Shown piece by piece: positions 3,898 to 10,432 of a stretch of DNA of 10,432 bases. The notes beneath the pieces were generated by a model. It was not told where the DNA came from. It saw only the letters and a program-made list of their open reading frames with translations, and made no database searches. Source of the DNA: a virus; the UHGV virus genome UHGV-0214677; one strand, written 5' to 3'. The position numbers and the translations under genes are program-made. Each line of letters starts with the position of its first letter. Position 1 is the first letter of the stretch.

Positions 3898-4109
3898 AAT
3901 AGCGGGTAAAATATTTCTCACATCTAAAAAACACCATTCCAATCAATCCCCTGCCGCCTCAAGTAGATGTCTGCAGGGGACACCATTTACACCTCTCCTG
4001 AAATCTACCATATCCCATAAAAAGCCTTTATAATCAGTATATACCCTTACTTATGTTACTCAAATAGTCGCCGTGATTCTCCTCAGGGGTACGTAAATCA
4101 AGTCACATT

Positions 4110-4159
4110 TGGGGGCCTATTTAGGGGCACATATTGGTCAATCTATTGCGAGGCCCCCA
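4110..4159 (+). promoter_or_regulatory. Perfect 9-bp inverted repeat spanning the integrase ribosome-binding site
   Basis: TGGGGGCCT (4110-4118) and AGGCCCCCA (4151-4159) are exact reverse complements 32 nt apart. The right arm contains the GAGG Shine-Dalgarno 7 nt before the int ATG. Confidence 0.3.
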
Positions 4160-4160
4160 G

Positions 4161-5351
4161 ATGCCACTGACAGCTCGACAAGTTGAAACAGCCAAACCCA
4201 AAGATAAAATTTATAAAATTGCCGATGGTGGTGGGCTCTACCTGCAGGTCAATCCTAACGGCTCAAAGTACTGGCGAATGAAGTACCACTATGCAGGGAA
4301 GGAAAAGAAACTATCATTTGGCACCTATCCAACTATTACATTGGCTGAAGCTCGCAAACGTCGGGATGAAGCCAAGAAAATACATGCCGATGGTAAAGAC
4401 CCCGGTGAAGTCAAGAAAGCTGAAAATCTTGAGAAAAACCTTTCTGAAGGAAGAACTTTTGCCACAATCGCCACCGAGTGGTACAACGCAAAAGTTTCAG
4501 GCTGGTCGGCCAGCTACGCTGATTATGTCGACAGAGCATTCAAAAATAATGTGTTTCCCTACATTGGAAACAGACCCATCAGTGATATCGAACCTCTTGA
4601 ACTTCTCGCAGTTCTTCAGCGTATTGAAAGCCGCGGAGCCTGCGAGCTAGCTAATAAAGTTCGCCAACGATGTGGTGAAGTGTTTCGGTATGCCATTGTT
4701 ACAGGTAGGGCTCGATACAATCCAGCCTCTGATCTGGTTATAGCAATGAAAAGCCATAAACGAACACATTACCCATTCCTGCTTCCTCCTGAACTACCAG
4801 AGTTTTTGTACAAACTCGAAAACTACACCGGCAGTATTGTAACCCGTGAAGCTACAAAATTGTTGATGCTCACAGGGCTGAGGACCGTAGAATTACGTAT
4901 GGGGGAATGGTGTGAGATCGATTTTTCCCAAAAAATATGGGAAGTGCCTCCGACCCGGATGAAAATGAGGAAGGAACATATTGTTCCCCTCTCAAATCAG
5001 GCAATTCGGTCTCTCCAAATCCTTAAAGAACTGACGGGAAGATACAGATACATCTTTGCCGGAAGAAATGATGTTAACAGGCCTATCAGCGATGCAAGCG
5101 TCAATATGGTTTTGAAGAAGATTGGCTATGACAAAAAAGCTACCGGGCATGGTTTTCGTCATACAATGAGTACTATTCTACATGAGAAAGGATTCAATAG
5201 TGCATGGATTGAAATGCAACTTGCACATACGGACAAAAACAGCATTCGTGGTACATACAACCATGCTCGTTACCTTGAAGGAAGACGAGAAATGATGCAA
5301 TGGTACGCTGACTACCTTGATGCTATTCGAAAAGATTCCCCAGCTATATAA
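4161..5351 (+). CDS. int: P4-family (DUF4102-type) tyrosine integrase
   Basis: Typical N-terminus 'MPLTARQVETAKPK...GGGLYLQVNPNGSKYWRMKYHYAGKEKKLSFGTYP...LAEARKRRDEAKK'. C-terminal catalytic signature present: R in 'GLRTVELR', 'HGFRHT', and Y in 'IRGTYNHARY'. ATG at 4161 with SD is preferred over the in-frame TTG at 4134 used by the ORF track. Confidence 0.9.
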   Translation: MPLTARQVETAKPKDKIYKIADGGGLYLQVNPNGSKYWRMKYHYAGKEKKLSFGTYPTITLAEARKRRDEAKKIHADGKDPGEVKKAENLEKNLSEGRTFATIATEWYNAKVSGWSASYADYVDRAFKNNVFPYIGNRPISDIEPLELLAVLQRIESRGACELANKVRQRCGEVFRYAIVTGRARYNPASDLVIAMKSHKRTHYPFLLPPELPEFLYKLENYTGSIVTREATKLLMLTGLRTVELRMGEWCEIDFSQKIWEVPPTRMKMRKEHIVPLSNQAIRSLQILKELTGRYRYIFAGRNDVNRPISDASVNMVLKKIGYDKKATGHGFRHTMSTILHEKGFNSAWIEMQLAHTDKNSIRGTYNHARYLEGRREMMQWYADYLDAIRKDSPAI

Positions 5352-5489: not shown

Positions 5490-5913
5490 GATACAACCAT
5501 CAGTCAGCCTGCTGGCACGACGTTGCGACAGACCCGTTGCCTCACACATGACTTCCACGGCTTCCCACTTCTGTTCTGTCGTCAGAATTTCGGTCCAGAG
5601 CTACCTGAAGTACCTCCTTATCCAGCATGGTTTTGGCGAGCAGCGTCTTGAGGGGTCGTTCTCCTCTTCAGGTGTCTTAAGCCGCTTTACCTCAGGGACT
5701 TCTATTCCACCAAACTTCGGCGCCCGGTGTAGAAAGTAGCGTCTGAAATAGCATTCTTGCGGCAGAGTTCCCGGGCAGAAACGCCGGCTACGGCCTCGCG
5801 GAGGATACTGATAATCTGTTCGTCGGAAAACACTTCTTCATGGGGATACCCTAACGTTGCTGATGAAGACATTACTTACATCGTGGTATATTAATAAATG
5901 TGGGAGCAGGTCA
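5490..5913 (-). mobile_element. Degraded IS3-family insertion sequence remnant (IS407-group-like orfA with frameshifts, truncated at its distal end)
   Basis: The - strand reads MSSSATLGYPHEEVFSDEQIISILREAVAGVSARELCRKNAISDATFYT... from ATG at 5870-5872, then breaks frame. Other frames continue with '..EVPEVKRLKT..', '..LLAKTMLDKEVLQVAL..' and '..VEVMCEATGLSQRRASRL', typical of IS3-family OrfA and the OrfB N-terminus. A terminal-repeat-like TGACCTGCTCCCA (reverse complement of 5901-5913) lies 41 nt outside the ATG. The inner boundary near 5490 is approximate. Confidence 0.6.
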
Positions 5914-6058
5914 ACTCCACAATGCAGTCCACTGAGGGAAGAGATCATTAGGTGCAAAGGATCTACATTAGTGGCTGAAAACAACTAGAATTTAGAATTA
6001 AAAAGTTTTATCCTATATTAGTAAGTATTTTTGTTAACACTTTTGTAAGGATACTTTT
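5914..6058 (+). promoter_or_regulatory. Very AT-rich leader and probable promoter region of the SIR2-like/DUF262 operon
   Basis: About 145 bp of AT-rich non-coding DNA between the IS remnant end and the first cassette gene, with several TATA-like hexamers (for example TATATT near 6015) and an AAGGA SD at 6044-6048. No single -35/-10 pair can be assigned confidently. Confidence 0.25.
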
Positions 6059-7108
6059 TTGAGCAGCGAAAAAAAAAAGAAAGTTGGGTTAATGCTTGGG
6101 AATGGATTCACTATTGACCTCCTTAGCAAAATGGACAAACTTGATATAATTGACCCATCCGATCTATTTAAATATGGCGATATGGTTAAGTGGCCCGCCA
6201 CTGGGGAACCCGGTTTTCTTTCTGCTCGATATTGCCCAAATCTATGGCGATTGGGTGCAAGACCCGGGCTAAATAGAACCGCATCATATCAAATAATAGA
6301 AGAATTAATTACAGTAATAAATTTATATGCAACTCTACCTCCAGAAACAATAAAGAAGAAAAATCAGGCAAGTCATACTCCATTGTCAAACATTTACATT
6401 TATGCTTATCAAGAATTAGTTTCATATTTAAGGGAGCTTTTCATTGATTATAACGAAAAAGTTTCCTCTGAAGATCTACGTAAGTTAGAAAGTGGCTGGC
6501 GAGACTATTTGATGAAACTGGACAAAAACGAAAACATAGAACGAGTTGATATTATAACTTATAACTATGACATTTATCTTGAGCGCCTTCTTGATTTACT
6601 TAATATCAGATTTGACATCCCAAACATATCTGACGGGAATGCAAAGTTTAAAATATACAAACCACATGGCTCTATTAGCTTCTTGTATGAAGGATATATG
6701 TCAAAAGATAACTACAATATCCAAAAAGAGTTATCTTTAAATAATGGCGACATATCAAAATTCGAATGCCGGCATGAAAACTTAAGCCTTTACATGCCAT
6801 TAATTCCAATAATACCGCCAGCAGGAGAAGCTCATCGTTATGCCCAAAACTGGGCTAATTCAATTAAAGAGTCTATTGAAGCGACGATGGAGTCGTACAA
6901 CCCAAACGATGATTTCTTCATTTGTGGTATTTCATATTGGCATGTTGATCGTGCCGAAATTGATGCAATAATACGCAAAATAAACAGTGACGTTAATGTT
7001 AGAATGATTAATCCAGGAAATGTTGATGGTTTAAGTGCTATACTTGGAATGGTATTTAATAGTTATGTTCATCATTCATCATCTGAAGTTTTAAAGGAGC
7101 TTGCCTAA
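6059..7108 (+). CDS. SIR2-like (DHS-like NAD-binding, SIR2_2-type) protein; candidate NAD+-consuming effector
   Basis: 349-aa ORF. Three motifs occur in the order expected for SIR2-family defence proteins: a Gly-rich N-terminal loop 'VGLMLGNGFTIDL', 'DIITYNYDIYLERL' (compare the TTNYD motif; predicted Asn ~169) and 'KIYKPHGSISF' (compare the KLHGS motif; predicted His ~203). Start is TTG at 6059 (SD AAGGA at 6044-6048) or the in-frame ATG at 6092. Stop TAA at 7106-7108 overlaps the next start. Confidence 0.6.
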   Translation: MSSEKKKKVGLMLGNGFTIDLLSKMDKLDIIDPSDLFKYGDMVKWPATGEPGFLSARYCPNLWRLGARPGLNRTASYQIIEELITVINLYATLPPETIKKKNQASHTPLSNIYIYAYQELVSYLRELFIDYNEKVSSEDLRKLESGWRDYLMKLDKNENIERVDIITYNYDIYLERLLDLLNIRFDIPNISDGNAKFKIYKPHGSISFLYEGYMSKDNYNIQKELSLNNGDISKFECRHENLSLYMPLIPIIPPAGEAHRYAQNWANSIKESIEATMESYNPNDDFFICGISYWHVDRAEIDAIIRKINSDVNVRMINPGNVDGLSAILGMVFNSYVHHSSSEVLKELA

Positions 7109-8136
7109 TGGAAATTTTAAAGCGGGATTCAAACAGTATTAATATTGCTTCCTTTTGGGAGGGCTTTTCATTAGGCAAATTTAATTTTGATCCTCCTTAT
7201 CAAAGAGATAGTGTTTGGGATGAAGAAAAACAATCATTCTTTATAGATAGTATACTACGTAACTATCCAATTCCCCCTATATTTCTCCATCAAAAAATTG
7301 ATGATGACACCGGAAGAATCACGTTTGAAGTTGTTGACGGAAAACAGAGGCTCACTGCCATTGTTAATTTTATCAATGGCCAAATAACATCAGCAAGTGA
7401 GGAAGAAGATGATGAATTGACTGGTGTGTTTTTTTCCGATTTATCAACTTCTAAATATGCAGAAGTTAAAAAATTATTCTGGCGATATCAGATGCCTATA
7501 GAGTACATTGATACTGAAGACGAAAGAATAATTGATAGTATTTTCGACAGGCTTAACAGAAATGGTGAACGACTTAACGGACAAGAGTTAAGGAATGCCA
7601 AATATCATGATACTGATTTTTATAAAAAAATAGTAGAATATTCACAACGTGAATATTGGCAAAAATTGCTAGAGCACGTTGATAAGAAGAGAATGGAAGA
7701 CAAAGAGTTTGTATCTGAATTGATATTCACGATCCTTGAGGATGAAGTATTTGGTGCAACTCAAGACATAATTGATAGTCTTTACGAGAAGTATTGCACC
7801 AAGAATGGTGATGAAACAAATGAGGCATTTTCTATTTTTGAAAAAACAACTGACTATTTAGTTGATATGAATATTGATTTCAAAAGTCATAAAGCAAGCG
7901 GTGTTAGTCACTTATACGGAATCTTCAGTTATGCACTTTATTGCAGTAACAATAATGTTCCTGTAGAAGAAGCGTCAAATAGACTTTCCACCTTCCTGGA
8001 TAGCTTGTGGGAAAAAGATACACAACATAATGCGGAATTAAGAAGAGAATATAGAAAAACTATGAGTTCTAGCACAAAAAGCAAAACCCAACGCTCACGT
8101 AGAATTGAAGTGCTTTTAAATCTACTTCACGATTAA
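7108..8136 (+). CDS. DUF262 / ParB-like nucleotide-binding domain protein without a C-terminal HNH (DUF1524) domain
   Basis: 342-aa ORF with ATG at 7108 overlapping the upstream stop (TAATG), preceded by AAGGAG (7093-7098). N-terminal 'FDPPYQRDSVWDEEKQSFFIDSIL' and 'EVVDGKQRLTAI' match the two signature motifs of DUF262 (the GmrS / SspE N-terminal ParB-like domain). No His-Me/HNH-like motif is visible in the C-terminal ~140 aa. Confidence 0.75.
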   Translation: MEILKRDSNSINIASFWEGFSLGKFNFDPPYQRDSVWDEEKQSFFIDSILRNYPIPPIFLHQKIDDDTGRITFEVVDGKQRLTAIVNFINGQITSASEEEDDELTGVFFSDLSTSKYAEVKKLFWRYQMPIEYIDTEDERIIDSIFDRLNRNGERLNGQELRNAKYHDTDFYKKIVEYSQREYWQKLLEHVDKKRMEDKEFVSELIFTILEDEVFGATQDIIDSLYEKYCTKNGDETNEAFSIFEKTTDYLVDMNIDFKSHKASGVSHLYGIFSYALYCSNNNVPVEEASNRLSTFLDSLWEKDTQHNAELRREYRKTMSSSTKSKTQRSRRIEVLLNLLHD

Positions 8137-8965: not shown

Positions 8966-9861
8966 TTACTGAAGGTGTTTCTGCAGCCAGATGCACGTTC
9001 CTTCTGTATCATACGCCTGTGCCCCATACCCTGTAGCAAGCAAAGTCTCTGGTAAATACTCGTCATATTTATCCAGGTACTTGTCAGGAACAACTGCAGC
9101 AAGCTCAAACTCTGAAGGTAACCCCGACAATAACATTTTCTTAAGTGCACGCTGAACAGAGGCAACGCCTGAGCCCTCTACCTCTATCACACCTGCAAAT
9201 GAACTGGCTTTAAAGCCACAACGTATAAGCAGGGACGTAATTGTATTGACAATTTTATCCCCCATCCACGGGATCACGTAGCAGTTCTGACCACTGGCAA
9301 TAAAACAGTGATTTTGTAGATTGTAGCGTTGGAAGTTGTCACTTCCTTCCGCGAAGAGGCTTCTGGCTGCGGCATCAGCATAATCAACTCTCTTGTTGCC
9401 TACCGCGATACGGTAATCATTTTCCCTGTAGATAGCGAGCATCTCCTGGCGAACAACATCATGAACAGACATCCCGCTACCACTGAATAGTGGTGGCTGC
9501 CCGCCTTTAGTCGCCTCAACATAGATAGCTTTTTTTCAACCTCGATCTCTGTCACTTTCCAGCGCTGTCCGCCGAAGATGATGTGCTGCTCCGGCAAAAG
9601 TGGGGAGTCTACAGGCACTGTGCCAAGAGTTCGGTTTCCCGTTACAATGCGAAACTCCTCAGATGTATTGAATACGGCATAAAACGTGTAGTGATTAATC
9701 AGCTTCTCCCCCTCAGCCCCGACAACTATTTAACCGCTGGCTAGTTGAGTGAGCAGGCCACATGTCCCCATATGTTTAAGCAGACTTTTGAAGTCATTTA
9801 TATCCACATTCCGGAACGGACCTGTCTGGCAAAGTTGTGACCAGAGCTGATCGGCACGAAC
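8966..9861 (-). pseudogene. Disrupted gene of unknown function (C-terminal remnant with frameshift and in-frame stop, truncated by IS insertion)
   Basis: ORF-track fragments 8966..9472 and 9400..9618 are adjacent frames of one reading frame, broken at a 7-T homopolymer (9530-9536). Further upstream the reading continues in the same frame as the 9400..9618 fragment but is interrupted by an in-frame TAA near 9735, and the coding sequence runs directly into the IS end at 9862. I could not assign a family. Confidence 0.6.

Positions 9862-10432
<571 letters not shown>

Follow-up and report, generated by a model that had tools for sequence, protein, structure and literature searches.

A length-polymorphic A10 tract within the 5' coding sequence of a SIR2-like candidate defence gene in Escherichia coli

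A run of ten adenines lies within the 5' coding sequence of a SIR2-like gene in the window, the 10,432-nt stretch of DNA analyzed here, and natural strains of E. coli carry this run at two lengths, only one of which keeps the gene in frame. On the comparison of orthologues and a structural model, the gene starts at TTG 6059, a question that we regard as settled, and the tract is coding because translation begins ahead of it; it occupies part of codons 4 to 7. At this position in the sequence, a change of a single unit alters the reading frame of the SIR2-like gene, and we judge from the assemblies that the A9/A10 polymorphism is real in most cases. Our best reading of these sequence data is that the tract is a lineage-specific hypermutable coding site, which would make expression of the module heritably variable and may act as a contingency switch, but is not a conserved regulatory device. 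We hold this to be the best overall explanation with good confidence.

The A10 tract and its variation among natural strains

The SIR2-like gene (AbiH/SIR2_2-related; 6059..7108, plus strand) spans 349 codons and stops at 7106-7108. It is located after an IS3 remnant and the P4-type tyrosine integrase of the island (4134..5351, plus strand; Pfam Arm-DNA-bind_3, Phage_int_M and Phage_integrase), which adjoins tRNA-Arg in other strains. Downstream on the same strand is a DUF262 (GmrSD_N) partner gene (7108..8136), which begins with an ATG that shares bases with the SIR2 stop (TAATG) and has an AAGGAG Shine-Dalgarno sequence at 7094-7099. An upstream in-frame TAA (6035-6037) closes the SIR2-like frame, and between this stop and the GNG motif the only ATG, GTG or TTG codons are TTG 6059 and ATG 6092. 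Read directly, the window around the start is TAAGGATACTTTTT-TTG-AGC-AGC-GAA-AAA-AAA-AAG-AAA-GTT-GGG-TTA-ATG-CTT-GGG-AAT-GGA, and the N-terminal peptide from TTG 6059 is (M)SSEKKKKVGLMLGNGF. This reading bears out the original prediction in placing TTG 6059 (6059..6061), the A10 run (6069..6078) and ATG 6092 (6092..6094), all on the plus strand, in one frame. That prediction also had the run encode KKKK, which is correct only in part: A10 begins at the second base of Glu4, covers Lys5 and Lys6 in full and ends at the second base of Lys7 (Glu-Lys-Lys-Lys), and the fourth Lys codon (AAA 6080-6082) lies outside it, past the G at 6079. A Shine-Dalgarno-like TAAGGAT element (6046..6052, plus strand), which the prediction did not mention, precedes TTG 6059 by 6-7 nt and is a good Shine-Dalgarno match. 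A promoter scan returned 10 matches against 11.0 expected from shuffles, and we therefore claim no transcription start; an Rfam search of the leader gave no match.

By chance alone, an A10 run in this AT-rich window is not striking, with one observed against 0.17 expected in 10.4 kb and with 25 of 200 dinucleotide shuffles containing at least one. No other run of ten or more occurs within 41.5 kb of surrounding chromosome, and at none of 77 homologous loci do the 60 nt before the GNG codon hold a run as long (range 3-9).

The A10 allele specifies the in-frame 349-aa protein. The A9 allele reads TTG AGC AGC GAA AAA AAA AGA AAG TTG GGT TAA-TG and closes after 10 codons at a TAATG (6090..6094, plus strand, derived from the A9 sequences read) in which the TAA of the +1 frame (6090-6092) overlaps ATG 6092; from that ATG it keeps an otherwise intact frame of 338 codons. 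An A11 allele would end at TGA 6115-6117, after 19 codons.

In the mechanism that we propose, the weak start TTG 6059, served by TAAGGAT, initiates the SIR2-like protein, and A10 encodes part of a Lys-rich N-terminal tail leading into strand beta1 of a Rossmann-like core. The run would be a hot spot for replication slippage because indel rates climb steeply with run length; in E. coli, this increase with homopolymer length is exponential (PMC8510543). The A9 allele would be expected to abolish the full-length effector or to reduce it strongly. It would probably lower the DUF262 partner too, through lost translational coupling and polarity, because that gene is overlapped and probably translationally coupled. 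Runs of nine or more A or T tend to cause transcriptional slippage, and selection acts against them in coding regions (PMC1088944); a poly-A frameshift in Citrobacter tssM is rescued by RNA-polymerase slippage (PMC4256274), and polymerase slippage on the A9 run could likewise leave some residual product. A -1 ribosomal slip on A-AAA-AAA of the A9 message would restore exactly MSSEKKKKVGLM, and reinitiation at ATG 6092 after termination at TAATG could give a 338-aa protein without most of beta1, a product that, judged from the structural model, is probably inactive.

The original prediction had suggested a comparison of tract lengths among related strains, and this comparison finds A10 or A9, with the frame changed, sometimes between near-isogenic strains. 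Of 30 complete E. coli genomes with a match to the region, 27 carry the gene, 19 with A10 and 8 with A9; A11 was found in none of the 27. All eight A9 tracts were read directly, as were 10 of the A10 tracts, and the other nine A10 tracts were inferred from alignments of 1,501 nt at 100.0% identity with no gaps. Each of the two main haplotypes of the 1.4-kb region includes A9, and across 4-kb flanks A9 falls on at least seven distinct SNP haplotypes, in each of which the tract is the sole indel; with 0-7 informative sites per 4 kb, these haplotypes are too few-sited to root the changes between A9 and A10.

The closest comparisons are between near-identical assemblies. Strain 744 is represented by two assemblies, A9 in one and A10 in the other, that show no further difference over 41.5 kb; C9 (two copies), T8, A8 and C7 have the same length in both. 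A pair of draft contigs, 258,879 and 258,878 nt long, differ over ~21 kb only at the tract and at a single SNP. Among the RM strains, three related ones have A9 in common, and five genomes that differ from them at one variable site (7164) of six carry A10. Draft contigs of short-read size also carry A9, as does a k141-named metagenome assembly (L020), and a variable-gap pattern scan of JGI metagenomes returned three contigs, all A10, too few for a frequency estimate. Two A9 alleles are further damaged: that of PI12 by an additional IS1 insertion and that of L018 by an extra deletion, which may be assembly noise.

We also considered the 349-, 338- and 325-aa forms in a collection of 15 billion proteins as a proxy for tract length and rejected it. 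The count of 338-aa forms mixes A9 and A10 because gene callers choose ATG 6092 whatever the tract length; PGAP's 325-aa call is the only form that tracks non-A10 alleles.

Hot spot or selected switch

Among orthologues, conservation of the tract is not borne out. At the equivalent site, Proteus vulgaris has GAG AAA AAA AAG AAA (A8), Proteus mirabilis has GAG AAA AAA AAA (A9, one codon fewer and in frame) and Providencia and Klebsiella have GAG/GAA CAA AAA AAG AAA (A7), and Pectobacterium, Yersinia and the orthologue L108 have no run. A-rich runs of 3-9 precede GNG in distant homologues, and such runs are common in the family because the N-terminal tail is Lys-rich. The A10 arose in the E. coli lineage by two substitutions, GAG to GAA and CAA to AAA, that fused shorter runs. 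Nothing points to selection for the repeat because no orthologue conserves it; in all orthologues examined, the tract is shorter or absent.

These comparisons divide the original prediction, in which the tract was a slippage-prone site that could switch the gene on and off by phase variation. The site is coding, slippage-prone, variable in length and frame-changing, as proposed, but the comparisons do not support phase variation in the strict sense (reversible, frequent and selected), a fully silent A9 or a conserved tract. A neutral hot spot is enough to explain the recurrent A9 alleles, given the exponential dependence of the E. coli indel rate on run length.

A true selected phase-variation switch, in which A10 and A9 interconvert reversibly at high frequency and clonal E. 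coli populations hedge the cost of a toxic NAD-consuming defence module against protection, is a tenable but rather unlikely alternative. It would account for the recurrence of A9 on many haplotypes and between near-isogenic isolates, for the otherwise intact 338-codon frame that A9 alleles keep and for the exact closure of the A9 frame at the TAATG overlap, which could keep ribosomes on the message; the pairing of the gene with DUF262, in a defence island beside an integrase, also fits. Set against these points are the lack of conservation of the tract in every orthologue examined, the further damage to two A9 alleles and the absence of a documented reversion from A9 to A10 among haplotypes with so few sites. 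A neutral hot spot, moreover, could give the same picture at an indel rate that we estimate at ~1e-6 per generation.

Known contingency loci offer a useful standard here. They include the phase-variable Type III mod genes (phasevarions) of Haemophilus, Neisseria and Helicobacter and the G-tract in Streptomyces pglX/BREX, and their tracts are conserved and enriched across strains and species, are reversible at 1e-2 to 1e-5 and are carried by organisms with weak repeat control. The present tract resembles them as a mononucleotide run near the 5' end of a defence-related coding sequence, in which a one-base change shifts the frame and whose length differs among closely related strains. It differs from them in being lineage-specific, in being reliably seen only as A10 and A9 and in its host; mismatch-repair-proficient E. 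coli is not known for homopolymer-based phase variation. By sequence, the locus thus shares with contingency loci the position of the tract and its polymorphism among strains but not its conservation.

We consider it unlikely that A10 is a working contingency switch for the uncharacterized, widely distributed two-gene SIR2-like/DUF262 candidate anti-phage module. Such a switch would alternate between full effector from A10 and trace effector from A9, the latter arising by polymerase or ribosome slippage or by reinitiation at TAATG, and would trade the cost of a toxic NAD-depleting effector against protection from phage. If true, this would be an uncommon instance in E. coli of an abortive-infection-type system under homopolymer-based phase variation; our literature search found nothing specific on phase-variable abortive-infection genes.

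Assembly error, the start codon and recoding

Long homopolymers are a classic site of single-base deletion errors in long-read assemblies. The calls of A9 and A10 rest on assemblies, and platform error is possible for any single genome. We consider it quite improbable, however, that sequencing or assembly error produced the A9 and A11 calls and that virtually every strain has an A10 tract and a stably expressed gene. Such an explanation draws on the deletion-only bias of the complete genomes (eight A9 and no A11), which runs in the same direction as long-read errors, on the A10 state of all three JGI metagenome contigs and on a set of assemblies that are clearly noisy at homopolymers. As a control, we measured every homopolymer of at least 7 (at least 6 for G/C) across 14 loci of ~21-41 kb each. 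In seven A9 assemblies, all other runs of at least 7, C8/C9 included, stand at reference length, which argues against an artefact, as does the presence of A9 in short-read-sized drafts and in the k141 (MEGAHIT-style) contig. From their naming conventions, we take the DB-prefixed TPA drafts and the k141 contig to be short-read (Illumina) assemblies. The A9 common to the three related RM strains, for its part, fits inheritance.

The noisy assemblies were discounted from our judgement of the polymorphism. L134 (A9) has other runs shortened, and L139 has runs inflated everywhere. Since the L012/L139 assembly is the sole source of A11, we rejected A11 as a third natural state. We likewise rejected L011/L133, in which TTG and the tract are replaced by scattered substitutions, as an allele and treated it as assembly noise.

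The preferred reading of A10 as a hypermutable coding site depends on the start codon. The original prediction offered, as one option, a start at ATG 6092 with the tract in the leader; were that so, changes in tract length would at most mildly affect translation efficiency. Comparison of orthologues and the structural model rule this option out, and we regard it as very improbable. ATG is the commoner start codon, gene callers picked it on at least 1000 contigs (as the 338-aa product) and the orthologues P0005, P0140 and P0146 are annotated in the same way. The evolutionary record of the gene, however, consistently favors TTG. Our close orthologues, which represent seven lineages at 75-96% identity, come from Klebsiella oxytoca, P. 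mirabilis, P. vulgaris, Providencia, Pectobacterium, Yersinia enterocolitica and two metagenomic lineages. In every one examined, a TTG lies 13 codons ahead of GNG (12 in P. mirabilis), and in each lineage an AAGGA, AGGA or AAGGG element lies 6-8 nt upstream of it. In the window, too, it is TTG that has the Shine-Dalgarno element, and ATG 6092 has none comparable. The codons between TTG and the Met vary among orthologues yet remain in frame, and across these 33 nt K-K-V-G-[LIVF] is kept despite nucleotide changes. The comparison of orthologues that had been proposed for deciding between the two starts favors TTG and upholds, from the other option of the original prediction, that the tract is coding.

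Met12 itself is not conserved. It is Ile in one orthologue lineage, and TTG is the only possible start in L108 and L109 because their codon at this position is ATA; in L107 an ATG directly precedes TTG and gives the same N-terminus. Across a 36-homologue alignment, the column of Met12 holds M, I, V, L, A or F within the N-terminal consensus M-x-K-K-[LIV]-x-[ILV]-x-L-G-N-G-F. In the 77 distant homologous loci, taken as one genome per species, the start nearest GNG lies 6-11 codons upstream in all 77, and none has its sole start at -2, the position of ATG 6092. In the AlphaFold model, beta1 comprises residues 7-13 (KKVGLML), with Met12 inside it, and a start at Met12 would delete five of its seven residues, so that ATG 6092 is best regarded as a non-native start and as a possible reinitiation codon in A9 alleles. 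PGAP (RefSeq) also places the start at TTG in A10 genomes (WP_000093565.1, 349 aa).

Programmed recoding, whether by transcriptional slippage or by a -1 frameshift at A-AAA-AAG, with two functional products per allele, is hardly credible: the slippery sequence is present, as A10 and a zero-frame A-AAA-AAG heptamer (6073..6079, plus strand) identical in sequence and codon register to the dnaX -1 slippery site, but both alternative frames close after 10 or 19 codons and leave no sizeable second product, no significant RNA structure flanks the tract (6026-6150, z = -0.56), the Shine-Dalgarno-like element lies ~17 nt from the heptamer, which differs from the stimulatory spacing for -1 frameshifting, and the motif is not conserved in orthologues. 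Sequence, RNA fold and orthologues gave no sign of a conserved alternative-frame product or of a stimulatory element; in contrast to dnaX, there is here no Shine-Dalgarno sequence at stimulatory spacing, no downstream hairpin and no meaningful alternative product. A10 does exceed the length of ~9 at which bacterial RNA polymerase slips efficiently (PMC1088944). Citrobacter rodentium tssM1 (A11; PMC4256274) and the E. coli and IS cases (PMC1088944) likewise have 9-11 A's in a coding region, and there, as may be the case here, an out-of-frame allele can still yield some in-frame mRNA. The out-of-frame state of tssM1, however, is a fixed one and both of its products are required, whereas at the present locus the in-frame A10 predominates and there is no indication that slippage products matter.

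The SIR2-like/DUF262 module and the meaning of its polymorphism

The 691 homologues of the SIR2-like protein include some with a precomputed PF13289 match, and the protein itself scores below the Pfam cut-offs for both SIR2_2 (18.2 bits against 24.5) and AbiH (23 against 30.9). Its AlphaFold (AF2) model is of good quality (pLDDT 88.6, pTM 0.90), and the top 50 Foldseek matches of this model include SIR2-HerA, ThsA, DSR2 and sirtuins (E 5e-9 to 1e-3, TM 0.4-0.58). The assignment as SIR2-like holds at the level of the modeled fold because the best PDB matches are defence SIR2 proteins, namely the SIR2 subunits of SIR2-HerA, ThsA and DSR2 (E down to 5e-9, TM about 0.5). In an alignment of 36 sequences D171 and H203 are invariant and N169 is at least 90% conserved, a pattern that would fit the expected catalytic Asn/Asp and His. 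The protein resembles the defence SIR2 effectors (SIR2-HerA/Nezha, Thoeris ThsA and DSR1/DSR2) and Pfam AbiH at the fold level, and shares with those effectors a Gly-rich loop after beta1 and a defence-island context, with N169/D171 and H203 as candidate counterparts of their catalytic residues. It differs from them in its low sequence identity (12-16%), in its sub-threshold Pfam scores and in its partner, a DUF262 protein rather than HerA, TIR or a fused sensor.

The order of the two genes is the same in 74 of 75 homologous loci, and the SIR2-like gene is the sole conserved neighbour of the DUF262 gene. The DUF262 partner protein matches PADLOC NsnA (1.9e-39) and PD-T4-2_A (1.4e-27), and so resembles the DUF262 component of Menshen and PD-T4-2, NsnA most closely; unlike in those systems, its partner is SIR2-like, and the other components of Menshen (NsnABC) and PD-T4-2, an OLD-type nuclease and HEPN, are absent beside the gene. 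Among PADLOC system models, the SIR2-like gene drew only weak generic SIR2 matches, and our literature search found nothing specific on a described SIR2+DUF262 system.

The position of the start and the polymorphism of the tract have immediate consequences for annotation. The gene is currently called with three N-termini (349, 338 and 325 aa), and the deposited 338- and 325-aa proteins are mis-called or frameshifted forms of the 349-aa product. Surveys of the presence and absence of defence systems will count inactive or attenuated copies as present because A9 alleles are deposited as intact proteins and not as frameshifts. Anti-phage tests of the cloned SIR2-like/DUF262 pair need the TTG start and a check of tract length, as an A9 clone or a construct begun at ATG 6092 would probably give a false negative.

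The tract takes a familiar form, that of a mutational on/off hot spot, which the sequence evidence does not show to be an evolved switch. If the polymorphism is real, as we judge it to be, the A10 and A9 strains would provide a natural allelic series for the host cost of a candidate NADase defence module, and E. coli would join the few known cases of a defence gene whose expression is varied by a simple repeat.

Start codon and tract alleles of the SIR2-like gene

The SIR2-like gene (6059-7108, plus strand) begins at a weak TTG codon (6059-6061) that is kept in enterobacterial orthologues of 75 to 96% protein identity (loci L021, L101-L109, and L125-L130) amid adjacent codons that have diverged, and several distant homologues also use TTG as their start. 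This conservation of a weak start may reflect selection keeping the translation of a toxic effector low. Alleles with nine rather than ten A residues in the tract at 6069-6078 (A9 alleles) are recorded by the RefSeq annotation pipeline, PGAP, as intact proteins and not as frameshifted genes (matched Escherichia coli genomes H13-H16 and H24-H27; loci L002-L007, L123, and L124). The products that PGAP assigns to A9 alleles are WP_000901352.1 (338 aa, from ATG 6092) and WP_225899303.1 (325 aa, from ATG 6131), and the IS1-truncated PI12 allele is given a shorter product of 314 aa (WP_257161073.1). Gene callers favour the ATG at any tract length, and for this reason the 338-aa form is recorded for at least 1000 contigs.

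Three public assemblies, GCA_041227845.1 (L011/L133), GCA_053219855.1 (L012/L139), and CP184817.1 (L134), carry clustered substitutions or systematic shifts in homopolymer length. These anomalies affect the surroundings of the A tract and other runs as well, and we considered all three assemblies unfit as evidence for tract alleles. Another homopolymer, at position 6565 of locus L131 in the mlaA-yfdC interval outside the window, splits strains into two groups by T7 versus T8, a difference that looks like an inherited haplotype marker and not noise.

Integration at argW and the flanks of the gene pair

An ARAGORN scan of the window returned no tRNA. Of the tRNA-Arg gene, the P4-type integrase gene (4134-5351, plus strand) has only the 3' end on its 5' side, an att repeat ending ...TGCAGGGGACACCA at about 3972-3985, and upstream of this repeat are two lambdoid prophage genes, one Ead/Ea22-like (969-1829) and one encoding DUF551 (2122-2814). 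Strain FDAARGOS_1257 has a complete tRNA-Arg(CCT) and yfdC at that place instead of the prophage genes, and a comparison of the two arrangements indicates that the prophage and the SIR2-like island are inserted in tandem at argW in the window's genome.

Between the integrase and SIR2-like genes lies a degraded IS3-family transposase containing an IS1222_FSE ribosomal frameshift element (5498-5614, minus strand; Rfam, 98.5 bits). The DUF262 gene (7108-8136, plus strand) is followed on the minus strand by a DEAD/DEAH helicase pseudogene fragment (8966-9867), which may be the remains of another defence gene, and by the first part of an element of the IS3 family (IS1203, with rve domains; 9904-10432). 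Downstream of an IS3-family element (IS1203 in locus L001), some strains carry in the same argW island a CBASS-like pair, SMODS/AGS_C and SLATT_6, accompanied by Qat-like genes (QatB, QueC-like, and TatD); in other strains, MarR and iol genes occupy that position. The argW island is a variable defence island (L131/L132, 15830-21000; L138, L140, and L141).

A conserved SIR2-like/DUF262 module

In 74 of 75 homologous loci (L021-L100), spanning many phyla, the gene that follows the SIR2-like gene on the same strand encodes a DUF262 protein bearing a DGxQR motif, and the two genes (6059-8136 in the window) are a conserved two-gene module. A PADLOC search assigned no system to the SIR2 half of the pair, and our literature search found no description of the pair. 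The SIR2-like/DUF262 pair is possibly an uncharacterised defence system.
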